A stretch of DNA of 32,457 bases, from UHGV virus genome UHGV-0096747; one strand, written 5' to 3'. This stretch comes from a virus. The number at the start of each line of letters is the position of its first letter. The first letter of the stretch is position 1. A program made the translations under genes and the position numbers. Positions 2,230 to 26,527 of this stretch are shown in pieces. A model generated the notes under the pieces. That model was not told the origin of the DNA. It saw nothing but the letters and a program-made list of their open reading frames with translations, and did no database searches.

Positions 2230-4677
2230 TTAACCGTCATGCATCATGCTGGCACGGGCGCGCACACGTTTATCCCGCTCGTATTTTTCGAGCGCATCCT
2301 GTAACTGGCGGTCAAGCTGTGTCCCCGGCGCAGTACCACCCGTCAGGCTGATGTGATATTCGTTTTTACTCTGGTCCACATAAGAGCGGCCAGCCGGTGC
2401 CGTGACCGGCTGATAAGCCTGATAGCCTGCATAAGAGCTGGTCGCCGGAATATAACCACCGGTGCCATACGTGGCGGCATGAGTTCTGGCGGCGGTCTGG
2501 TCAAGTGTGTCTGACTCTTTGTTGATAACACCGAGTTTTTCCAGTACCCAGTCAATACCGCTGCGCAGTTTGTTGAACGCATTAAGCGGCAGCATCAGCG
2601 CGTCAGCCAGTGCCTGCCCGAACATGACGCCCGTGTCACGGCAACGGTTCAGGGTGTCCTGTGTGGCTTTAACCGGAGCAATCAGGTTTGTAAACCACTG
2701 CCACGCGGCCTGTAACTTTTCGCCCAGCCAGTCAAACACCGGCTTAAGTGGCGTGAACAGCTCCCCCACCGGCGCAAATGCCGCTTTCAGCCCTTCAACC
2801 ACACCGCCAAAGAATGCGCTGACAGGCTCCCAGTATTTACGGATAAGCAACGCCCCGGCGACAATGGCAGCCACCACGGCCACAACCGGCCAGCTAATCG
2901 CACCGATGGCCGTCATAACGGCACTACCAACCGTCGTGAAGATTGCCCCCATTGCGCCTGCTGCCGCGATAATGGCATTGATGCCGGTGATAACCGGCCA
3001 GGCTACAAGGCCAATGGCACCGATGATGCCAGTCAGCGCCAGTGCACCGCCGGCAATGATGCCGATGGTTGACGCCAGTGATTTGTTTTTCTGTATCCAG
3101 CCGTCGAGTTTTAACACATACTTTGTGGCCGTCTGCGTGAGCTTACGCAGCGCGCCTTCCTGCTGGTCAAACAGGTCAGTCCCCACAGCCTCATAAGCGG
3201 ACTGAAACTCCTTAAAGTCACCGCCGAGGTTATCCTGCATGATTTTAACCAGCTCTTCCGTTTTACTGTCCGAGGCTTTCAGCGTGGCGGTCAGCGTATC
3301 CAGTTTTCCGCTTGCTGCCGCTGCCAGTAAAACGTTCGCTGATTTCAGGGCTTCCTCACCAAAAATGGTTTTAAGGTATTCCCCCTTCTGAGACGTTCCC
3401 AGCTTGTGTTTATCAAAGCTGGCCTGAATCTCTTTCAGAATGGTGAACAACGGACGCATATTTCCCTTTTTGTCCGAGGTTTTAACGCCAAGCTCTTTGA
3501 GTGCATCCCATGCTTTTCCAGTCGGAGCCTGTAATCGGGTGACAACGGCACTACTACCCGTACCCGCCATTGACCCCCTGATGTTATTGTCATGCAGCAC
3601 ACCGGTCATGGCTGCTGCCTGCTCAAGACTTACACCTGCCGTTCTTGCGACCGGACCGAGGTAAGTCAGTGCATCACTGAGTCCCTGAAAATCAGCCGCC
3701 GACTTATTCATCGTTGCCGACAACACGTCGCCCACATGGCTGACATCATCATTTGACAGTTGAAAGGATGCCTTAGTCCCCAGCAACAGTTGCGCGTTTT
3801 CTTCCATCGACCGCTGATTCGCCAGCGCCATATTCAGCGTGACCGGCGTTGCCGCCTGAATGGCATCAACATCCCCACCCGCTTTCGCGATGATTATCTG
3901 TGCACCGGCCGCATCATCCGCCGAGGCGGCGGTATTGTCGCCGAGCTGGCGCGCCTGTTTGCGTAGTGCGGTCATTTCGGCGGAGTCTTTTGCCACTCCG
4001 AGCACGGCCTGCAATTCTGAGTTTTTCTGCGCAAACTCATAACCGGGCATCAGCAACTTAACTCCGGCCATCGTTCCCGCCGCCGCAATCCCCACACCGG
4101 CAGCGCCCACTGAGGCCATATTTCCGGCCAGTTCCTTTCCGGCCTGATAACGCTGTTTTACTGCGTTAAGTTTTGCCTGTTGCGCACTGACACGCGCCAG
4201 CGCGTCACGCTGACGGTTAAGCTGTGCGGTGGTTTCACTGATACGATTTTTCAGTCCCTGCTCATCATGTGCAAGATTGCGGGTATTAATTCCCACAACG
4301 GCCAGTTCCCGCTGCTGGCGTTTAACGGAATCCGTCAGGCGGTTATATTTCGCCTGTAAGTCCTCCGCCGCACGCTTTGCGGATTCCAGCACTTTCGCCT
4401 GAGCACGGGTCGGACGTTCGGTGTTTTTAAACTGTGTGGCAAGGGCTTCGGCCTCCTGCCGTGCCTTTTCAAGTGCATGACCAGTTACGGCGAGCTGTGC
4501 ACTGGTCTTGCGAAATCCCTCAATACGGGATGCGTGACCGTTCAGCTCGCGCAGTGATTTTTGTGTTTCCCGGATATCCCCCGACAGCGACTTACTCGCT
4601 GTGCGGATGGATTTAAACGGGCGGGATGCCTGGTCAACAGCCCTGAGCAATACCTGTAATTTTACATTGTTACTCAT
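2230..4677 (-). CDS. T: Tail tape measure protein
   Basis: 815 aa as in P2 gpT; Ala/Gly-rich hydrophobic central region and coiled-coil N-terminus typical of tape measure proteins. Confidence 0.9.
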   Translation of the reverse strand: MSNNVKLQVLLRAVDQASRPFKSIRTASKSLSGDIRETQKSLRELNGHASRIEGFRKTSAQLAVTGHALEKARQEAEALATQFKNTERPTRAQAKVLESAKRAAEDLQAKYNRLTDSVKRQQRELAVVGINTRNLAHDEQGLKNRISETTAQLNRQRDALARVSAQQAKLNAVKQRYQAGKELAGNMASVGAAGVGIAAAGTMAGVKLLMPGYEFAQKNSELQAVLGVAKDSAEMTALRKQARQLGDNTAASADDAAGAQIIIAKAGGDVDAIQAATPVTLNMALANQRSMEENAQLLLGTKASFQLSNDDVSHVGDVLSATMNKSAADFQGLSDALTYLGPVARTAGVSLEQAAAMTGVLHDNNIRGSMAGTGSSAVVTRLQAPTGKAWDALKELGVKTSDKKGNMRPLFTILKEIQASFDKHKLGTSQKGEYLKTIFGEEALKSANVLLAAAASGKLDTLTATLKASDSKTEELVKIMQDNLGGDFKEFQSAYEAVGTDLFDQQEGALRKLTQTATKYVLKLDGWIQKNKSLASTIGIIAGGALALTGIIGAIGLVAWPVITGINAIIAAAGAMGAIFTTVGSAVMTAIGAISWPVVAVVAAIVAGALLIRKYWEPVSAFFGGVVEGLKAAFAPVGELFTPLKPVFDWLGEKLQAAWQWFTNLIAPVKATQDTLNRCRDTGVMFGQALADALMLPLNAFNKLRSGIDWVLEKLGVINKESDTLDQTAARTHAATYGTGGYIPATSSYAGYQAYQPVTAPAGRSYVDQSKNEYHISLTGGTAPGTQLDRQLQDALEKYERDKRVRARASMMHDG

Positions 4678-5684: not shown

Positions 5685-6875
5685 TTAATTGCTGTTAACC
5701 GAGGTGACCAGATTTGCCAGATATTTATCGGTGATACGCTGGCGCAGGGTCAGGTTTTCGAGAGGAGGCACCGGGGTATAGTCGTAGTCGATATACAGTT
5801 TTCCGGCCTTGAGGGTTTCCGCATCGTTGGATTCTTCGCTGAACCAGCAGGTCGCATCCACGATATAGCCGTTTGTTTTCAGCTCACGGAATTTGGCATT
5901 GATGCCGTCAACGATGTCGCGAATCAGCGTTGCAGTGATGGGCTTGTCCACCGCCCACATGTGCGCCTCAGCCATCGTGTCGGCCAGCACCTGCGCGGTG
6001 CGGGTGTAGTTTTCAAAGAGGAACAGCGGGTCATCAGAGCAGGTACGGTTACCCCAGAAGCGGAAACCGTCACGGCGAATCAGCGTTGTGACACCTGACT
6101 CGTTCAACAGGTCAGCATCGGTGCCGGACTCCTGCAAATCCCAGAATACAGAGGCACTGATGCCGGTAACGCCGTTTACCCCGACGTTGGACAGCGTTTT
6201 ATGCCAGCCCTGCTCCTGGTCGATTTTAGCGCGCAGACCCAGCGCACGGGCGGTGGCATACGCGGTGGCGGTGGTGCTGCTGACCGTATCCCATGCGAGG
6301 AAATCCGGCCAGATGACCATCAGCTCACGCTGGCTGAAATTCTGGCGGTAGGCTTTCACCTCGGAAATGGTTTTACAGCCCCATGCGCTGATATACCCGA
6401 AAGCGCGCAGCTTCTGACAGACGGATACCAGTGCAACAGCCACCTCTTTGGTGTCCAGTCCCGGCACACCGAGAATACGCGGTTTAACACCGGTTACCGA
6501 CTCCGCCGCCAGCAGGGCTTTCAGTCCGGTGTACTGACCGTTTTCGTCGGTGGTGCCGATGATATTGGAAACGGTCTGCGCGAGTTTCGTTTCTTCGTCT
6601 TCGCCGGTGCCGTCTTCCACACGCACGACAACGGTGACCGGTTTTGACTGGTCGGCGATGGCCTGCAACGATGCCGCCAGCGTGCCTTTTTTACCGGCCT
6701 TCGCAATTGCGCTCTGCACATTGGTAATCAGCACCGGTTTATTGAGGGGGAAGGTTTCCGCATCCGCATCGCTGGCCGTGCAGACCATGCCGACAATGGC
6801 CGTGGATACGGTGGAAATGACGCGGGTGCCGTCGTTAATCTCCAGCACCTGCACGCCATGATGATAGTCACTCAT
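5685..6875 (-). CDS. FI: Tail sheath protein FI
   Basis: 396 aa as in P2 gpFI; position. Confidence 0.9.
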   Translation of the reverse strand: MSDYHHGVQVLEINDGTRVISTVSTAIVGMVCTASDADAETFPLNKPVLITNVQSAIAKAGKKGTLAASLQAIADQSKPVTVVVRVEDGTGEDEETKLAQTVSNIIGTTDENGQYTGLKALLAAESVTGVKPRILGVPGLDTKEVAVALVSVCQKLRAFGYISAWGCKTISEVKAYRQNFSQRELMVIWPDFLAWDTVSSTTATAYATARALGLRAKIDQEQGWHKTLSNVGVNGVTGISASVFWDLQESGTDADLLNESGVTTLIRRDGFRFWGNRTCSDDPLFLFENYTRTAQVLADTMAEAHMWAVDKPITATLIRDIVDGINAKFRELKTNGYIVDATCWFSEESNDAETLKAGKLYIDYDYTPVPPLENLTLRQRITDKYLANLVTSVNSN

Positions 6876-7052
6876 CCGTTTAACTCCGTGGTTAATGGGT
6901 GCAACTATTTTCTGTTGGGCAGTGCATGAGACGCTATTTGACCTGGCTGGTCAGTGGATGAAACAACAGATAAAGAAAAGGCGGGCAATCAGCTTGCCTG
7001 CCTTGATTTGTACTCTCTCTGTTTCCAACTGACAAATTACGTAACCAAAATT

Positions 7053-7068
7053 CTGTCAAATCTGACAG
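7053..7068. terminator. Possible weak bidirectional terminator hairpin between the cargo gene and FI
   Basis: CTGTCA-AATC-TGACAG perfect 6-bp dyad flanked by 4-T runs on both strands, 68 nt downstream of the 7136..7828 ORF. Confidence 0.3.
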
Positions 7069-7135
7069 CCTGTTTTGAGCGAAGAGCGGACCTGAGATTG
7101 TGGTATGCTAATTTATGGGGAGCAGGTCAATTGTA

Positions 7136-7828
7136 TTAGTTATCTTTTTGCTTTTCTTTATCCCATTTCTTTGCAGTGGTCTGATACCACTCTTCACGTG
7201 CTCGTTGTTCCTCGGCTCTGTCACTTGAATTATAGTTGTCTGTTTTAATTTTTTTGCTTCCCTGGGAAATCGGCCTCCAGTCTTCTCTAATCTTTTTCAT
7301 CTGCTCAGCTATCTGTGTCATTGGACTCCTTGCACCTAAGTAGCTAACCCCCTCGAAAGAAGCCATATCATAAGAATACTCATTCCGCTCTCTTTCAGTT
7401 GAGCCCGGCTGTTTAGACCAGCTAATACTAACAGAATAAACTTGATCTTTAATCTGGTCATACTTACAAAGACTGCTGTTAAGGGAATGGCCGTTTTTCA
7501 ATACGCTAACCTTGCTAAATGGTATACCTTCATTTTTTCTATGTTCTGCATTAACCAGTGGGGGATTAAATCCGACTTCAATATCATAGGCTGGGGCATT
7601 TCCGGTATTAGCAATATTGATATCAAAATAAAAAGCAGCCCAAGAATTTGGTTCAAGAGTCACAACGACATGAGGTTGAACTGATGCGTCAACCATCCTT
7701 TTTGTCTCGTCTGCTAATAGCCTTGTTACTCTCCACAAGAAAAATGTAGCAACTGCTGTTAGCAATGCTGCCAAAGCGGAGATAAGTGTACTTACTGTGT
7801 TTATATGCTCTGCGATAAATTCGATCAT
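7136..7828 (-). CDS. Hypothetical single-pass membrane protein, AT-rich cargo at the Z/fun position
   Basis: 230-aa ORF with ATG start and AAGGA Shine-Dalgarno 7 nt upstream; N-terminal hydrophobic helix (VSTLISALAALLTAVATFFLW) then a charged soluble domain; AT-rich unlike the flanking tail genes. Confidence 0.6.
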   Translation of the reverse strand: MIEFIAEHINTVSTLISALAALLTAVATFFLWRVTRLLADETKRMVDASVQPHVVVTLEPNSWAAFYFDINIANTGNAPAYDIEVGFNPPLVNAEHRKNEGIPFSKVSVLKNGHSLNSSLCKYDQIKDQVYSVSISWSKQPGSTERERNEYSYDMASFEGVSYLGARSPMTQIAEQMKKIREDWRPISQGSKKIKTDNYNSSDRAEEQRAREEWYQTTAKKWDKEKQKDN

Positions 7829-8319
7829 GAGTTGTCCTTGGGGGCGTACTAATTGTTTTCAATACTAAAATAGCGCCGGGCTTGAAAAATTGCACACTTA
7901 TGGTTCGATTTACCTCAACAGTTAAGGCTTCAACTTCCCCCATGCACCTCACCCAGCCCAAGACTGTATGAGGTCTGACAAAGAACTTCCTGACACTTGA
8001 AAACGAGGCAACGGCTAGGGTTTCTCGTAGGGCAAGGATTGAATACGAAGCCTGTATATTGCTCCGCGAACGCTGCTGAGGGCAGTTTAAATGTTGGGCG
8101 TTTATGTAGCCTTTCACTCACCAGCATGAGTTCAATGTCTGTGAGTTACCGACAACAATATAAAGGGGGTGGCATCATCATATATCCAAGCTAGAGTCAA
8201 ATCCTATAACTGGTTTTATGATCAGTGTCAATTGTTTGATTATTGAACGTTTACGAAGCAGCACGGGAGCCATATAACTAATGGGCAGGTATAAGCCTGT
8301 ATCACGAGGAATCAGTAAA

Positions 8320-8499
8320 ATGGCTGATGATAAGACCAAAATCGGTACCCCTGACAATGATTTAATAAGTATCAAACAGGATTACGAGAGACGTGATTGG
8401 GCTGAAAAGTTTGGAGTTAGCGAGGCCAAACTTGTTCAAGCCGTACAGGCTGTAGGTCATTCGGCTAAGAAAGTACAGGCATGGCTTAAAGACCATTAA
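8320..8499 (+). CDS. Small hypothetical protein (59 aa), resembles the DUF3606 family
   Basis: Internal ATG at 8320 with GAGGAA Shine-Dalgarno 8 nt upstream (the track ORF starts earlier at 8281); WAEKFGVSEAKLVQAVQAVGHSAKKV matches my memory of the DUF3606 pattern; followed by a terminator. Confidence 0.5.
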   Translation: MADDKTKIGTPDNDLISIKQDYERRDWAEKFGVSEAKLVQAVQAVGHSAKKVQAWLKDH

Positions 8500-8505
8500 T
8501 ATATG

Positions 8506-8528
8506 AGCGCCTTTCTAGGCGCTTTTTT
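8506..8528 (+). terminator. Rho-independent terminator between the two small cargo ORFs
   Basis: AGCGCC-TTTCTA-GGCGCT hairpin followed by TTTTTT. Confidence 0.5.
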
Positions 8529-8551
8529 CTTTGTCCTTTGGGAGATGATTT

Positions 8552-8830
8552 ATGGCTAATAATTTATTTATTACTTACGACCTCATTAAAACGAAAGATT
8601 ATGCGGCTGTGTATGATGCAATTAAATCTTTAGGAAATTGGGCTTTAACAACTGAATCGAACTGGTATGTTAACTGTAGTTACTCTGCCGAGGATGCAGC
8701 CAAAATTGTGAGGGCGGTCATGGATAGTGATGATAAGCTTATTGTTGTAGACGCAACCAATAACTCAGCTTATTGGTACAATCTCTCAGATGAAGTTAGT
8801 AACCAAATTCTGACTGAGTGGAACAAGTAA
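8552..8830 (+). CDS. Small hypothetical protein (92 aa)
   Basis: ATG with GGGAG Shine-Dalgarno upstream; AT-rich; alternating hydrophobic strand-like and helix-like segments (LFITYDL, KLIVVDA, AYWYNL); no family assigned. Confidence 0.5.
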   Translation: MANNLFITYDLIKTKDYAAVYDAIKSLGNWALTTESNWYVNCSYSAEDAAKIVRAVMDSDDKLIVVDATNNSAYWYNLSDEVSNQILTEWNK

Positions 8831-8856
8831 TTAAAGGGGGTGGGTACCCCCTTTAA
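8831..8856. terminator. Perfect 10-bp inverted repeat (TTAAAGGGGG / CCCCCTTTAA), likely bidirectional terminator closing the cargo island
   Basis: Palindrome with 6-nt loop immediately after the stop of the 92-aa ORF. Confidence 0.4.
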
Positions 8857-9049
8857 TTCAGAAACTATCATGATTGAAACATTAAATATACTGGGTTAAT
8901 TCTTTCATCCTTGCTCCCTTGCTATATGTCCTGAAAGCGTCCTTTTTAGCCTTCTGCTCAGTATGTCCGGTAATGGCACAGAGCGGACTGTCAGATTAGG
9001 CTTTACTCTGTGCCATAGATATGTAATCTCACACCAGAGCTTATACAAC

Positions 9050-9577
9050 TTATTGCGGCATTTCCGGCCATTCAGGATTTGCAGGATCCACACGACTGAC
9101 CAGAACGCTGTAGCGTTCCCAGATCTCCAGCCGTGTGCGCTCCTCATCTGTTGCCATGTTCAGTCTGACCGCGCGCTCCAGCGGCAAAATCACGGATTCA
9201 GCATCTGCTAGAAGTCTGGCTTTCCGATTTTCTGCCTGCTGCTGCAATTCCTCCGCCGTATAAATTCGTTTAATCACTGTGCCGTCCTTAAACATCCAGT
9301 TCCCTGAAATGTCCGCCCGTCGGTTAGCGGTAATATCCGGCACTTCAACAACACTTAATCCATCTGGTCTGATAGCTGTCACATCCTTTTCCACATAGCG
9401 GATAATATTATCTTTGTCGTACGCTATTTTTATCGTGTCATCAGCAAAATACTTTTGTTCTTCGTACCAGTTCTTACCATCTTCTGAAAAAAACCAGACA
9501 ACATCAAAACCCTTTGTCAATTGATATTGTTCAACCGTTTTTGGATTACCCGCCGTAATATTTTTTAAATGCTGCAT
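9050..9577 (-). CDS. G: Tail fibre assembly protein
   Basis: 175 aa as in P2 gpG; immediately downstream of the tail fibre gene. Confidence 0.88.
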
Positions 9578-14087: not shown

Positions 14088-14873
14088 ATGGTCAGCTATA
14101 ATGTGACTAATGTGTGGGGGCTAATCGTTTTTTTCCTTTGTAGCTTTGCAGTATTAGCATTTTTTAGCTTTGGTAAAAGTAACCTTATGAGGCTTATTGC
14201 ACATTATTTCAATTTTGGATATTCAGACAAAAAATTAAAAAGACTTGACCGCGAGTGGCGCGACATTCAACTATTTAAAATAATTAACGGAATCAATGTA
14301 TCAGGCATTGAAAATGTGAGAATGATACAGCAGGGACTGATTGATGGAAAACTAAAAACATCGTATTTTTTCCTTACTCGCATCTGGGGTGACATAACAA
14401 AAACACCACACATAATTAAAACAATAATTGTAATTCTGTCCAGTATTTTTTACATTCTCCTCGCATGTTACATACACAACGAACAATCCGTTATAGTAAG
14501 GGATGCCATAGGCATACCATATAAAAACATGATGTACTATGTTTATAGTGACAAAGTTCTTTTATCCTTCAAAAATAAAGCAGTTGAATTTAATAAAACT
14601 TATAGCCTTGCCGATTGCAAGAGACTGCAAAACGTATTTATAAAAGACACACTTCCTGAAATCGCCTGCAATAAGCTCTTACAGCTAAACGAGGAGGACT
14701 CCGAATGGTTAAGCCAGGAGATTAAAGATAATAACAGTCACAAAAAAGCATTATCAATACTATCCCTCGTCTATTTCACTTCAGGTCTGGTTATATTCCT
14801 GTCATATACAAAATTCTTTTACGCCAATAAGAAGGTTTTAGAATACAAAGCATCAAATAAAAATCACTCATAA
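14088..14873 (+). CDS. orf30-like AT-rich membrane protein, antisense to the late operon
   Basis: 261 aa (786 bp, the size I recall for P2 orf30); ATG with AGGAG Shine-Dalgarno; three hydrophobic helix-like segments; very AT-rich; opposite strand to flanking V and S. Confidence 0.7.
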   Translation: MVSYNVTNVWGLIVFFLCSFAVLAFFSFGKSNLMRLIAHYFNFGYSDKKLKRLDREWRDIQLFKIINGINVSGIENVRMIQQGLIDGKLKTSYFFLTRIWGDITKTPHIIKTIIVILSSIFYILLACYIHNEQSVIVRDAIGIPYKNMMYYVYSDKVLLSFKNKAVEFNKTYSLADCKRLQNVFIKDTLPEIACNKLLQLNEEDSEWLSQEIKDNNSHKKALSILSLVYFTSGLVIFLSYTKFFYANKKVLEYKASNKNHS

Positions 14874-24368: not shown

Positions 24369-24698
24369 TTAAAACTTGATGGTATTTAATAAAACGCGAA
24401 AAGCCACACACTTTGTAGAAATAGCAGAAACCTTTGCCTTATCCTGCTTCCTTGCCTGAGACTCAAAATCATCACCTGTTATAATATCAAAAAGTTCGTC
24501 ATGAAAAACCCTTAACTGAGCTTCAATATCCTTTCTTTTCCATCGCGACTCTTGCTGAACATATATTGTTATAGTCGAATTTATTATATTTAAACTCGCC
24601 TTAATTCTCATTTCCTCTTCTAAGAGAGACTTCGCCGACTTTTTTGAATACCCCTTCAACCAATAACTAATAGCATCAGAACGCAACTCATTAACCAC
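24369..24698 (-). CDS. Hypothetical protein, fourth ORF of the old/tin-position cargo operon
   Basis: 109-aa ORF with GTG start and GGAGAG Shine-Dalgarno 10-11 nt upstream; AT-rich; overlaps the preceding ORF by 43 nt in another frame. Confidence 0.4.
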   Translation of the reverse strand: MVNELRSDAISYWLKGYSKKSAKSLLEEEMRIKASLNIINSTITIYVQQESRWKRKDIEAQLRVFHDELFDIITGDDFESQARKQDKAKVSAISTKCVAFRVLLNTIKF

Positions 24699-25030
24699 AT
24701 CTGAAATACTCTCCAGGAGTTTGGTTTTAGTCTCCCGTTTAACAACAGAACGCCAATGGACTTTATTATATGCAAATGCGGCAGTGGCCGCAAAATAGTA
24801 CTAATAAGAGCCGTAATAAGTGATGACGATAAAATAGGCGTTTCAGGTGGATGCCGTATTGCATCAACAATATTAGAACTAGCTACTTCAATTATCGTAT
24901 TAATATCCTTAACTGCATGAGTAGCACTCAGGCCTTCTTCATTATCCTTCTTGATAAAAAGCAAACTAGGTGAGAACTCACCAGAACCCTCACCTAAAAT
25001 AAACATCGGATTATTCGACTGTTGGCTCAT
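24656..25030 (-). CDS. Hypothetical protein, third ORF of the cargo operon (C-terminal half may be out of frame)
   Basis: 124-aa ORF with ATG start overlapping the end of the upstream ORF by 20 nt; AT-rich. Confidence 0.4.
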   Translation of the reverse strand: MSQQSNNPMFILGEGSGEFSPSLLFIKKDNEEGLSATHAVKDINTIIEVASSNIVDAIRHPPETPILSSSLITALISTILRPLPHLHIIKSIGVLLLNGRLKPNSWRVFQMWLMSCVLMLLVIG

Positions 25031-25400
25031 ATCGTTTCGAATTAAACTGCGCCTCGTTGATATATTGTTCTATTTTCTTTTTATAGAAATCAAAATCAGG
25101 ATTAGTATATTTAATTTCAATTTTAGACAATAACTCATTGGCATGCATATATCCATATTTTACCATGCCCGCAAAGCCCTCCACCAAAAAAGACGAACCA
25201 TATCCTTCGACATCATCATCGATGACTATCTGCAATTTTTCCCCAGCAGAAAGCAAGCTTAGACGCTTTCTTAAGAAATCTTCTCTAAACCGTTCACCAC
25301 TTGCTGTCCCGTCAGTACGATAGCGGCCTCTGGGAACTTTCGAGAACTCTGAACCAATCTTCAATGTTTTCATGAGGCTAGCAACCAATCTAGTAATCAT
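25011..25400 (-). CDS. Small protein (129 aa), possible STAS-like fold, translationally coupled to the upstream ATPase gene
   Basis: The ATG at 25398..25400 overlaps the upstream TGA (ATGA coupling) and has a GGAG Shine-Dalgarno; the track ORF starts earlier at a TTG. Segment IVIDDDVEGYGSSFLVEGF loosely resembles the STAS core. Confidence 0.5.
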   Translation of the reverse strand: MITRLVASLMKTLKIGSEFSKVPRGRYRTDGTASGERFREDFLRKRLSLLSAGEKLQIVIDDDVEGYGSSFLVEGFAGMVKYGYMHANELLSKIEIKYTNPDFDFYKKKIEQYINEAQFNSKRYEPTVE

Positions 25401-26527
25401 AGCTTTGTACTCCATACTATAAGTGTACCACAAACAGGCAGAGCGAAGCTTACTGATTTTACCTCAGATTTTTTATCATGTTGTGAGTATTTGTAAAGGC
25501 CTTTACCACTCATAATTGAAAGATAACCTTCACCACGTTGCTTTATGAACTCCAACAAGTCCTGCAAGCCTTTACCCCGATCCTCTTCCCCCGTACTAGA
25601 ACGTTTGATTTCAACTGCAGCCTTTAACAATTGTTCATCTCTTTTTCGTTCTGCAAGCGGTAACTTCGAAAGGTAATTTAAAACCTTTTCATGGAGTTTA
25701 GATTCCGGCAAAGACCCAGGAATTGTAATACCTTGATCATAAAACACTACTTTTATTATTCTACTTGAACTATCATATGAAGCAGTTAAATACCATTTTT
25801 TATCATGCTCATGATAACCTTTATTATCTGGATAAGCATGATGAACAACATTTGTAATAGCTTCGGACAAACCACTATATAGGAAAGTCCATTTACCAAG
25901 GTCTTCTCCCACAATACGCTTTATTTCTTTTTTTAAATGCTGAGTTTTTTCATCATCATGTAAATGTCCTTTCATATACTTAACAAAACGGATATTACTT
26001 GGTTCCTTTTCTTTTTCAAGCTCAAAACTATCTTTATTTCTAAATAAGTCAAAAAAACCCAACTCATCAAATTGAGAGAGTATGTTTTTATTCCACGTTT
26101 TCACTTTTGGGCGAATGCGTTGCCTTACCGAATCATCCCATTTTGATAATTCCGCGGTCAATACCAATGCGGCAGATGCAGAAATATATTCAATCTTCGA
26201 AAAGTCAACAAAACAAAGACGGTAACATTGGTTATTAAATATCTTCCGCCCCGTAAGATGCCTAATCGTTTGTATGGCTTGCATTGTACGATGGTAATTA
26301 CTTGAAAAGTTCATCTTTTTAGGTAAAGTAAGGAAAAGGTCTCTATTTTTCCTTATTTCGCAATTTAATCCATCTTTAATTTGCGCATTTATCCAACGAT
26401 TTATTTTTGATGCTTTTGAAATAGGATTAATCTTAGAGCGCCCTGCAGATACAACATCTCTTCCTGTACGATGTAAATAGGATCGTAAAATATCTCTCTC
26501 TCTTTCTCTCTTGGTTATTTTTTTCAT
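25397..26527 (-). CDS. GHKL-family ATPase or kinase-like protein with N-terminal STAS-like segment, first gene of the cargo operon
   Basis: 376 aa; ATG with strong AAGGGGGG Shine-Dalgarno; C-terminal motifs EAITNVVHHA (N-box-like), FYDQGITIPG (G1-like) and DRGKGLQDL (G2-like); N-terminal VDFSKIEYISASAALVL resembles the STAS phospho-site region; AT-rich. Confidence 0.55.
   Translation of the reverse strand: MKKITKRERERDILRSYLHRTGRDVVSAGRSKINPISKASKINRWINAQIKDGLNCEIRKNRDLFLTLPKKMNFSSNYHRTMQAIQTIRHLTGRKIFNNQCYRLCFVDFSKIEYISASAALVLTAELSKWDDSVRQRIRPKVKTWNKNILSQFDELGFFDLFRNKDSFELEKEKEPSNIRFVKYMKGHLHDDEKTQHLKKEIKRIVGEDLGKWTFLYSGLSEAITNVVHHAYPDNKGYHEHDKKWYLTASYDSSSRIIKVVFYDQGITIPGSLPESKLHEKVLNYLSKLPLAERKRDEQLLKAAVEIKRSSTGEEDRGKGLQDLLEFIKQRGEGYLSIMSGKGLYKYSQHDKKSEVKSVSFALPVCGTLIVWSTKL

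Follow-up and report, generated by a model that had tools for sequence, protein, structure and literature searches.

The window, a stretch of 32,457 nucleotides from the virus genome UHGV-0096747, is a P2-like prophage. It carries a compact cassette of two co-oriented small genes that is probably an accessory (moron) operon, assembled from independent, recombined modules, in which a partial terminator allows readthrough to a Cas2-like protein. A promoter-like site probably drives the first gene, which encodes a 59-aa DUF3606 protein. A conserved intrinsic-terminator hairpin would then stop part of the transcripts, and the readthrough fraction would encode a 92-aa protein before transcription ends at a strong, putatively bidirectional hairpin overlapping the stop codon. 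The two genes appear to be independent modules that recombined near the hairpin, rather than two components that evolve together. The 92-aa protein is predicted to be a stand-alone member of the Cas2/VapD superfamily that is closest to BPSL1038 and that, by analogy, most likely acts on nucleic acid as a dimer. Its likely benefit to the lysogen would lie in conflict with other mobile elements. The relevant features are as follows.

5685–6875: FI tail-sheath gene, flanking the Z/fun slot
7059–8997, no strand assigned: Z/fun cargo region between FI and G, bounded by an imperfect inverted repeat
7136–7828, − strand: ORF1, a neighboring cargo gene of 230 aa (phrog_11802, E-value 1e-146)
8210–8858, + strand: mobile cassette (leader, DUF3606 gene, hairpin, 92-aa gene, terminal hairpin), delimited by comparison with locus L008
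8250–8278, + strand: promoter-like site (−35 TTTACG at 8250–8255, 17-nt spacer, −10 TATAAC at 8273–8278)
8320–8499, + strand: gene for the 59-aa DUF3606 protein, with Shine-Dalgarno GAGGA at 8306–8310
8505–8528, + strand: intrinsic-terminator-like hairpin (8-bp stem, TTCT loop, T6 run; terminator scan)
8552–8830, + strand: gene for the 92-aa Cas2/VapD-like protein, with Shine-Dalgarno GGGAG at 8540–8544
8829–8858, no strand assigned: perfect 13-bp inverted repeat, AATTAAAGGGGGT / ACCCCCTTTAATT, with a 4-nt loop, overlapping the TAA stop codon
9050–9577: G tail-fibre-assembly gene, flanking the Z/fun slot and convergent to the 92-aa gene

Prophage setting and limits of the cassette

The DNA between G and FI is non-core and variable, which is the hallmark of Z/fun cargo in P2-like phages. 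A repeat search found the two arms bounding it (7059–7091 and 8965–8997), which are 33 nt each and 73% complementary. These arms correspond to inverted repeats, left and right, that are marked in the P2-EC53 record, and the slot is annotated as the Z-region in AJ512682. The cargo is common to only 3 of the 70 matching phage records, the others matching the flanks only. Phage R18C and P2-EC53 have the same cargo in the G/FI slot, with a cassette that is 98% identical. In R18C, the cargo genes at fun(Z) were described in 2019 as “rare morons of unknown function” (PMC6823313). Two papers on P2/P4 hotspots, one of them PMC9122126, do not mention the cassette.

The other cargo gene, ORF1, has a probable N-terminal transmembrane segment, as read from its sequence, and is oriented divergently from the pair. 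It is labeled a “putative lysogenic conversion protein” in AJ512682. The L008-type islands have the pair but no ORF1, which sets ORF1 apart as a module of its own.

The limits of the cassette are apparent from a sliding comparison with L008, in which homology begins near 8210 and stops near 8860. The cassette is thus common to the P2 Z/fun slot and to integrase-adjacent islands. Identity to L008 is 90–97% across 8220–8499, versus 57–80% across 8500–8859.

Both genes are annotated by PGAP in at least 100 complete E. coli genomes. NCBIfam gave no match for either small protein, and a literature search on the RefSeq protein accessions and on stand-alone Cas2-like prophage proteins found nothing specific. 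Since the only PADLOC matches are sub-threshold (Cas2_II, E-value 0.019; PDC-M03B, E-value 0.023), the cassette is outside the catalogued defense systems.

The two genes and their hairpins

The preliminary description called the 59-aa protein DUF3606-like, and Pfam agrees: the match to DUF3606 (PF12244) scores 66.2 bits against a cut-off of 24.3 (E-value 2.2e-18) and is full length, residues 4–57 covering profile positions 1–54 of 54. Between the window and L008, the gene has a dN/dS of 0.035 at a dS of 0.41, and is under purifying selection. A 72-aa product starting at an in-frame ATG at 8281 was considered and rejected. This ATG lacks a Shine-Dalgarno sequence and falls at the predicted transcription start or before it, and the PGAP gene call is likewise 59 aa, which we accept as the true length. 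DUF3606 is a small binding module of three helices with no evident enzymatic potential, and a fold comparison gave no clear match to a DNA-binding fold. In Burkholderiales, DUF3606 occurs alone, in the chromosome, among other small genes.

The promoter-like site upstream of this gene is the top + strand site in 8130–8560, scoring 9/12, and its hexamers and spacing are identical in L008 and L108. It is this consensus matching and conservation from which we infer a promoter role. No sigma-70-like site scoring at least 8/12 was found between 8300 and 8560, and a stricter promoter scan of 6800–9200 found no site.

The 52-nt spacer between the two genes contains a hairpin whose stem (8505–8512 and 8517–8524) reads GAGCGCCT-TTCT-AGGCGCTT. 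The stem has 8 bp, including 5 G-C pairs, and is followed by TTTTTTCTTTGT, with the T6 run at 8523–8528. A terminator with such a run after the 59-aa gene had been noted earlier, and the terminator scan locates it in the same place. The hairpin has a free energy of −16.5 kcal/mol (z = −2.67 versus shuffles). Its stem is kept in nine spacer sequence variants, in which changes are limited to the loop and to A-U becoming G·U. An equivalent GCGCC hairpin lies between a 40–42-aa ORF and the 92-aa gene in six other loci (L003, L007, L014, L015, L016 and L079), and the hairpin accompanies the 92-aa gene whichever small gene stands upstream.

The preliminary description also suggested attenuated readthrough into the 92-aa gene. 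This idea is plausible, given that the hairpin is conserved and that there is no promoter-like site between 8300 and 8560. More generally, every element of the preliminary description is found where it had been placed, and the elements exceed chance, because the region has 7 terminator-like sites against 1.8 expected, the hairpin is kept in nine variants and the genes are under purifying selection.

The cassette ends in a second hairpin, whose repeat arms are at 8829–8841 and 8846–8858 (−18.3 kcal/mol, z = −3.07) and which the terminator scan assigns to the − strand. A perfect 10-bp palindrome had been reported after the 92-aa gene; the repeat is indeed perfect, but it is longer, at 13 bp. In nearly all enterobacterial loci, a G-run/C-run hairpin of different sequence occupies the same position after the gene. 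The terminal repeat has the appearance of a terminator that works in both directions, opposite the convergent gene G. A search of 6880–9060 against Rfam in E-value mode found no known RNA family, with sub-threshold chance matches on the terminal hairpin.

The 92-aa gene begins 23 nt after the T run and, as first described, has its own Shine-Dalgarno sequence. Between the window and L008, its dN is 0.16 and its synonymous sites are saturated; it is under purifying selection. The AlphaFold2 model of the protein (pLDDT 94) has the order β1-α1-β2-β3-α2-β4-β5-α3, with strands at residues 62–67 and 72–76 followed by a helix at 80–90. This order includes the ferredoxin-like β1-α1-β2-β3-α2-β4 fold of the Cas2/VapD superfamily. 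A small α/β fold of the kind seen in small nucleases, which had been suggested with very little confidence, is thus borne out by the model and by the hhalign match described below.

In profile comparisons, the 92-aa protein shows remote homology to Burkholderia pseudomallei BPSL1038 (PDB 7VXR), a Cas2/VapD-like DNase placed in a proposed nuclease sub-family (PMC10491678). In hhalign, our family profile A3 matches the BPSL1038 orthologs (A4) over 85 aligned columns with a probability of 92.3% and an E-value of 5.5e-7, which pertains to one pairwise comparison. When A3 was compared with PDB sequences, chain 7vxr_A was the second match (E-value 0.11), and VapD chains were absent among the matches at E ≤10. 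Only this broader profile reached BPSL1038 in the PDB; the single 92-aa sequence found nothing meaningful there and a profile of close homologs (A1) found only noise. A Foldseek search of viral structures (BFVD) gave no match at E ≤0.001. The window protein scores 12.7 bits against Pfam CRISPR_Cas2 (PF09827), below the cut-off of 23.8 (E-value 0.15), while 15 of 95 family members match this model at E ≤0.1 (best 8.6e-7).

The family comprises about 2,400 clusters at 50% identity, has no Pfam model, and retains 45–58% identity across phyla. D10 stands at the end of the strand at residues 3–10, the position of the metal-binding Asp that ends β1 in Cas2. It is invariant in an alignment of 70 sequences, and 80 of 95 divergent members have D or E at this position. 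D61 is invariant in the window family, and D10 and S36 are mostly conserved, making these three residues candidates for a functional role. Some relatives, of about 240 aa, have two domains in tandem, as would be expected if the protein works as a dimer. Pfam searches of ten longer relatives of the domain were uninformative bar one, a 1507-aa protein that carries Baseplate_J and CBM_5_12.

The window protein is acidic, with a pI of 4.3 (family median 5.8, range up to 9.7). This acidity is unusual for a nucleic-acid-binding protein, yet homologs of BPSL1038 are also acidic.

Gene partners and alternative readings

Of the 93 loci in which we found the 92-aa gene, 29 have a DUF3606 gene upstream of it. 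These comprise the window type (mostly near-identical copies), the L008–L012 islands, L013 and L078, all within one narrow enterobacterial clade. Among approximately 50 non-enterobacterial loci, we found neither an upstream DUF3606 gene nor any other conserved partner, and neighbors are heterogeneous across 47 other loci. Other Enterobacterales have an unrelated, basic 40–42-aa ORF upstream of the 92-aa gene. Across lineages the upstream partners are all small and hydrophilic, and several are very basic; Pfam assigned no family to the alternatives to DUF3606. In L108 (E. coli 90-1), the same leader runs straight into a 92-aa homolog, with no upstream ORF or hairpin.

The homologs occur in varied surroundings. 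Those of L003–L012 lie in integrase-adjacent islands, and those of L088 and L090 in the gpA–ogr region of P2-like phages. The slot itself is free of cas genes, as are most loci with a homolog, and only in L021 and L055 does a homolog lie between cas3 and cse1 of a type I-E locus. Other homologs are beside Thoeris genes (ThsB-ThsA-ThsB at L025, ThsA-ThsB at L030), Multiubiquitin/E1/DUF6527 systems (L039 and L031) or SIR2 plus nSTAND (L007), or are just downstream of ribonucleotide reductase genes (L035, L036 and L040). In a raw count, recognized immune systems adjoin only about 6 of the 47 non-enterobacterial loci.

In the VapXD system, the toxin VapD is preceded by a small antitoxin gene, VapX. 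The preliminary description likewise saw a toxin–antitoxin or regulator–effector pair here, in which the 92-aa protein would be a toxic nuclease, the DUF3606 protein its antitoxin or regulator, and the terminator a means of keeping the antitoxin in excess. The membership of the 92-aa protein in the Cas2/VapD superfamily, the co-orientation of the small upstream gene and a hairpin that would favor its expression all suit this proposal, and the unrelated small upstream proteins of different lineages could reflect antitoxin swapping. Nonetheless, we consider it quite improbable, and an obligate pair is not supported: DUF3606 is confined to 29 of 93 loci in a narrow clade, the leader in L108 feeds the 92-aa homolog alone, and the divergence of the two genes between the window and L008 is discordant (dS of 0.41 for DUF3606 versus saturation for the 92-aa gene). 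The obligate co-occurrence, tight operon and congruent evolution of type II toxin–antitoxin systems are absent, a 52-nt spacer with a terminator being atypical of their operons. Moreover, DUF3606 stands alone in Burkholderiales and lacks a clear DNA-binding fold match, while BPSL1038 is monocistronic and was expressed from a recombinant E. coli clone under IPTG, its authors excluding a toxin role by nematode and cell assays. DUF3606 was also considered as a conserved partner of BPSL1038 and rejected, BPSL1038 loci having no DUF3606 gene.

The evolutionary independence of the two modules would also suit a scheme in which the hairpin, with its canonical terminator features, fully terminates the DUF3606 transcript and the 92-aa gene has its own unrecognized promoter, e.g., one not of the sigma-70 type or one lying within the 3′-terminal part of the DUF3606 gene. 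Indeed, in many lineages the 92-aa gene is clearly accompanied by expression signals of its own. We nevertheless judge this scheme unlikely. No site reaches 8/12 between 8300 and 8560, the ATG follows the T run after only 23 nt, the sequence directly preceding the gene in L108 is the conserved upstream leader and not internal sequence, and the hairpin travels with the 92-aa gene regardless of the upstream small gene. Two further proposals concern function. The cassette could modulate host physiology as a lysogenic-conversion or stress cassette, e.g., in stationary-phase nucleic-acid turnover, with no relation to phage conflict. The small, hydrophilic and partly very basic upstream proteins, the chromosomal DUF3606 genes among small genes in Burkholderiales, the homologs following ribonucleotide reductase genes and the status of BPSL1038 as a core gene point in this direction. 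However, these upstream proteins have no identifiable Pfam family, and cargo slots and defense islands suit conflict functions at least equally; we regard this proposal as decidedly unlikely. Finally, an acidic, Cas2-like protein could inhibit or act as a decoy for Cas1-Cas2 spacer acquisition or another immune complex, protecting the prophage rather than the host. The pI of the window protein, its fold and the presence of homologs in the cargo slots of phages and within or next to CRISPR-Cas and Thoeris loci fit such a role, but it is very improbable, given that identity across phyla is very high for an anti-defense protein, that acidity is not family-wide and that the Cas1-binding C-terminal strand of Cas2 is replaced by a helix, as in BPSL1038.

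The partially terminated accessory operon is the reading we prefer. It removes a toxin–antitoxin label that is tempting but unsupported, and it assigns the product of the larger R18C moron gene, by fold and by homology, to the Cas2/VapD superfamily, with the BPSL1038 DNase as its nearest relative. This gene's family is very widespread in mobile-element cargo slots and defense islands, still with no Pfam model. The cassette is also a compact natural test case of a terminator within an operon, which may fix the proportions of two gene products. A broader proposal, which is doubtful, is that this large, uncurated family of stand-alone Cas2-like proteins is a single-gene player in mobile-element conflicts, whether anti-phage or counter-defense; small upstream genes (DUF3606, the 40–42-aa basic peptide and others) would in that case act as modulators that can replace one another. 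If so, the recurrence of the family in prophage and satellite slots and beside Thoeris, type I-E CRISPR-Cas and ubiquitin-like/E1 systems would be explained. A Cas2-like stand-alone module would join the known repertoire of defense or counter-defense, which would help to explain why Cas2-like proteins persist outside CRISPR loci.

Comparison with known systems

The cargo resembles that of the P2 Z/fun site and other moron hotspots of P2-like phages in being foreign, variable, non-essential and flanked by inverted repeats. However, P2's own fun(Z) gene, which has been called a phage immunity gene (PMC6823313), is unrelated to the cargo in the window. The gpA–gpQ region of E. coli P2-like phages is a validated hotspot for defense systems (PMC9122126), and homologs of the 92-aa gene also sit after gpA in other P2-like phages.

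In form, the inter-gene hairpin resembles leaky in-operon terminators that set expression ratios: it has a GC-rich stem and a U tract between co-oriented genes, and the spacer leaves no room for a downstream promoter. The terminator here is putative, however, and the hairpin could also stabilize or process the transcript.

The 92-aa protein shares with Cas2 and VapD an acidic residue that ends β1 in a Y-D-L context. Unlike Cas2, it is encoded at a locus with no cas1 or CRISPR array, and it has a C-terminal helix where Cas2 has its Cas1-binding strand. In contrast to VapD of the VapXD system, it has no obligate partner equivalent to VapX.

The closest resemblance is to BPSL1038, which is reported to be a dsDNA endonuclease and has an extra C-terminal helix and a long, kinked β4 strand (PMC10491678). 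Both proteins are stand-alone, have about 90 aa and are encoded away from cas1. The model of the window protein has the same β-α-β-β-α-β order, an extended or kinked β4 and an added C-terminal helix (α3), and the sequences share an N-terminal M-x-x-N-L-h-I motif and a W-Y motif in β3. On the other hand, profile identity is only about 19%, and the D11(X20)SST motif of BPSL1038 is only partly kept in the window family. In the hhalign alignment, S36 is opposite T34, the sole motif position that is aligned, and D10 is opposite a gap; the D-to-S spacing in the window family is 25 rather than 20, and positions 34 and 35 are variable. Conversely, the invariant D61 of the window family is not conserved in BPSL1038. 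The genes also differ in setting: in Burkholderia, BPSL1038 belongs to the conserved core genes and keeps its chromosomal synteny, whereas the window family is mostly cargo of mobile elements.

The cargo slot of the prophage

The 32.4-kb window is a nearly complete P2-like (Peduovirus) prophage, and the cassette lies between FI and G, the classical Z/fun cargo slot of P2. The features of this region are:

5685-6875, - strand: FI, tail sheath gene, one flank of the slot
7059-7091 and 8965-8997: imperfect inverted repeat bounding the cargo, corresponding to repeats annotated in P2-EC53
7136-7828, - strand: ORF1, encoding a 230-aa protein, divergent from the gene pair
8250-8278, + strand: best sigma-70-like site in a scan of 8130-8560 (TTTACG, 17 nt, TATAAC; 9/12)
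8320-8499, + strand: 59-aa DUF3606 ORF, with a GAGGA Shine-Dalgarno at 8306-8310
8505-8524, + strand: inter-gene hairpin GAGCGCCT-TTCT-AGGCGCTT, then a T6 run ending at 8528
8552-8830, + strand: 92-aa ORF, with GGGAG at 8540-8544; its start is 23 nt after the T run
8829-8841 and 8846-8858: terminal 13-bp inverted repeat, overlapping the stop codon of the 92-aa gene
9050-9577, - strand: G, tail-fibre-assembly gene, the other flank, next to the tail-fibre gene H

The cargo is common to only 3 of the 70 phage records found by megablast, namely two of R18C (98.2%) and AJ512682, the "Z-region" record of P2-EC53 (97.8%), given as identity to the window; the remaining records match the flanks alone. 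At the fun(Z) position of R18C, two short ORFs with no known function have been described as rare morons, one of them being sometimes labelled DUF3606 (PMC6823313).

The ORF1 protein has a Lys/Glu-rich C-terminus and a probable N-terminal transmembrane segment. It matches phrog_11802, a family without assigned function, has no family match in Pfam, PADLOC or NCBIfam, and is labelled "putative lysogenic conversion protein" in AJ512682. ORF1 is found together with the pair in a Pantoea locus (L013) as well as in loci of the P2 type, and is absent from islands of the L008 type, in which a related cassette adjoins an integrase gene. In E. coli E6474 (L109), the IS4-like element ISVsa5 (974-2182 of that locus) lies inside the 490-bp non-coding spacer between ORF1 and the DUF3606 gene. 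Since the adjacent cassette is 100% identical to that of the window, this spacer tolerates insertion.

Two other sites in the prophage also carry additional ORFs. A 261-aa ORF (14088-14873, + strand), oriented against the tail and baseplate genes and without a match in Pfam or PADLOC, occupies the slot of orf30 in P2, where a 741-bp hypothetical ORF was reported in R18C (PMC6823313). The gpQ-gpA hotspot (24656-26527, - strand), a published location of defence cargo in P2, contains three co-oriented ORFs of 124, 140 and 376 aa. The 140-aa ORF has a DUF4325 STAS-like domain (E 3.8e-5), the 376-aa ORF has a weak HATPase_c_2 match, and a PADLOC search with the three gave no match. The trio may be an uncatalogued candidate system.

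Genes, hairpins and expression of the cassette

The architecture of the cassette is well supported. Both ORFs are real genes. The Pfam DUF3606 match of the 59-aa protein is full-length (E 2.2e-18), in agreement with the preliminary description, which also rightly gave the 92-aa ORF its own Shine-Dalgarno. Relative to L008, the DUF3606 gene of the window shows 11 synonymous and 2 non-synonymous differences (dN/dS 0.035), and the 92-aa gene a dN of 0.16 with saturated synonymous sites. PGAP calls both genes, giving the DUF3606 product as 59 aa, and the full cassette occurs in 102 of 5,426 complete E. coli genomes.

For the cassette, two public records are wrong and misleading. RefSeq R18C (NC_049461) does not annotate the DUF3606 gene and instead lists an antisense 44-aa ORF at 4482-4616. 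In the P2-EC53 sequence of 2004, both the DUF3606 frame and the GC hairpin contain small indels, which are probably sequencing compressions. Because of these indels, a DUF3606 profile search finds no DUF3606 ORF there, and ORF1 alone is annotated in AJ512682.

The inter-gene terminator hairpin with its T6 run, noticed earlier, was detected by a terminator scan at 8505-8528. It folds at -16.5 kcal/mol (z = -2.67), and terminator-like sites in the scanned region number 7, versus 1.8 expected. Its stem is kept in nine spacer variants, in which the changes affect the loop or convert A-U pairs to G.U; no double compensatory changes occur among them. A perfect palindrome after the 92-aa gene is likewise present, but its arms are 13 bp rather than the 10 bp first described; it folds at -18.3 kcal/mol (z = -3.07). 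Nearly all enterobacterial loci have a terminal G-run/C-run hairpin at this point, with differing sequences. It points towards the convergent gene G (an integrase gene in the islands), as expected of a bidirectional terminator.

The TTTACG/TATAAC site is conserved in L008 and in the E. coli 90-1 locus (L108), and no sigma-70-like site of at least 8/12 was found between 8300 and 8560. The simplest reading is that this single promoter-like site would drive transcription of the cassette, that transcription would partially terminate at 8528, after the hairpin, and that, as the preliminary description proposed, readthrough transcripts would continue into the 92-aa gene.

Evidence against an obligate gene pair

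The two genes had been likened to a toxin-antitoxin or regulator-effector pair. We assembled a set of 93 loci with a gene of the 92-aa family, drawn from genomes and viral contigs and by exact-match look-ups, and DUF3606 is upstream in only 29 of them: loci of the window's own type (mostly near-identical copies), the L008-L012 islands, the Pantoea locus and L078. In islands of E. coli, Kosakonia, Pectobacterium and Serratia (L003, L014, L015, L016, L079), it is replaced by an unrelated, conserved and very basic protein of 40-42 aa (3814-3942 in L003; pI 10.5; MAKKTVVRSAITGQFVKPIEAKRHPDTTITETIK...), for which a Pfam search found no family. Because a similar GCGCC/GGCGC hairpin with a T-rich run also follows this gene, the hairpin moves together with the 5′ flank of the 92-aa gene. 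In E. coli 90-1, the conserved leader with TTTACG and TATAAC directly precedes the 92-aa homolog (about 70% DNA identity), with neither an upstream ORF nor a hairpin between them.

The closest neighbours differ widely among 47 non-enterobacterial loci, and no partner gene recurs. The gene for BPSL1038, described as a Cas2/VapD-like dsDNA endonuclease (PMC10491678), is syntenic and monocistronic, and the DUF3606 gene occurs alone in Burkholderiales chromosomes. Identity between the window and L008 falls from 90-97% in the leader and DUF3606 gene to 57-80% in the 92-aa gene, which places a recombination junction near the hairpin. An obligate pair of either kind does not fit these observations, which fit two independently mobile modules joined here by happenstance. 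Nothing about the DUF3606 protein points to enzymatic activity, and it gave no convincing match to a DNA-binding fold; we treat it as a putative small binding module.

The 92-aa protein and its relatives

Direct searches with the 92-aa protein gave sub-threshold matches to Pfam CRISPR_Cas2 (E 0.15) and, over nearly its full length, PADLOC Cas2_II (E 0.019), as well as a match to phrog_1090, which has no assigned function (E 1.4e-24). An AlphaFold2 model based on 70 homologs is confident (pLDDT 94, pTM 0.84) and has the order b1-a1-b2-b3-a2-b4-b5-a3. With a profile of 95 divergent family members, BPSL1038 (7vxr_A) ranks second in a PDB sequence set (E 0.11), near full length and in register, and hhalign against 32 BPSL1038 homologs gives 92.3% probability (E 5.5e-7, 85 columns). 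Fifteen of the 95 members individually match CRISPR_Cas2 (best E 8.6e-7). The model and the hhalign result bear out the small alpha/beta, nuclease-like fold that had been weakly suggested, and profile comparison places the protein in the Cas2/VapD superfamily.

In these 95 sequences, D61 is invariant, about 90% agree at each of N4, I24, G28 and W90, position 10 is D or E in 84%, and position 36 is S or T in 85%. The family comprises 2,388 clusters at 50% identity (E <= 0.001). Homologs 45-58% identical to the window protein come from Flavobacterium, Acidobacteria, Campylobacterota and Desulfobacterota and from several proteobacterial classes. Some relatives of about 207-262 aa (among P0181, P0194, P0210, P0216, P0238, P0287 and P0294) contain two tandem copies of the 92-aa domain, which fits a dimeric 92-aa protein. 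One 1507-aa relative, in which two domain copies are combined with Baseplate_J and CBM_5_12, could be either a fused phage structural protein or an artefact of assembly.

The contexts of the homologs have a mobilome and defence-island signature, given here as occurrences without a claim of enrichment. Homologs lie between gpA and ogr in other phages of the P2 type (L088, L090), and adjoin the integrase of capsid-encoding islands (L003-L012). Those with defence genes directly adjacent or surrounding them include:

L025 4342-6778, Blastocatellia genome: Thoeris genes ThsB, ThsA (SIR2-STALD) and ThsB, directly beside the homolog
L030 1730-3663, Shewanella genome: Thoeris genes ThsA and ThsB, directly beside the homolog
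L021 4001-4279 and L055 4001-4282, a Flavobacterium and a Bacterioplanoides genome: homolog between cas3 and cse1 of type I-E CRISPR-Cas

Others occur beside Multiubiquitin/E1/DUF6527 systems, including DUF6791-ThiF (L039, L031), with SIR2 plus nSTAND (L007), or near ribonucleotide reductase genes, Zot, TniB, MqsA or ImpB. In Pseudomonas and Cellvibrio (L035, L036, L040), a 98-aa homolog is located just 3′ of nrdA-like and nrdB-like ribonucleotide reductase genes, a chromosomal context that differs from those in mobile elements.

In the best-supported account, the 92-aa protein is a stand-alone, probably dimeric Cas2-like protein that would act on nucleic acid and give the lysogen an advantage when in conflict with other mobile elements, and DUF3606 would be an independent small protein co-transcribed with it. 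The biochemical activity and biological role are inferred. It is rather unlikely that the 92-aa proteins form a new Cas2-like single-gene family for defence or counter-defence.

Both the cassette and the DUF3606 label had been published before, and stand-alone Cas2-like proteins are an already known kind. The new results are the fold and homology assigned to the 92-aa gene, how large and widespread its family is (Pfam has no model for it), and the evidence that speaks against obligate pairing with DUF3606. In BPSL1038, the b4 strand is long and kinked and a further helix follows at the C-terminus (PMC10491678); the 92-aa model has both additions. However, the motif proposed for the BPSL1038 sub-family, D11(X20)SST, is only partly retained in the window family, which has a signature of its own. 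We conclude that the 92-aa protein is a distant relative of BPSL1038 and not a strict member of its sub-family.
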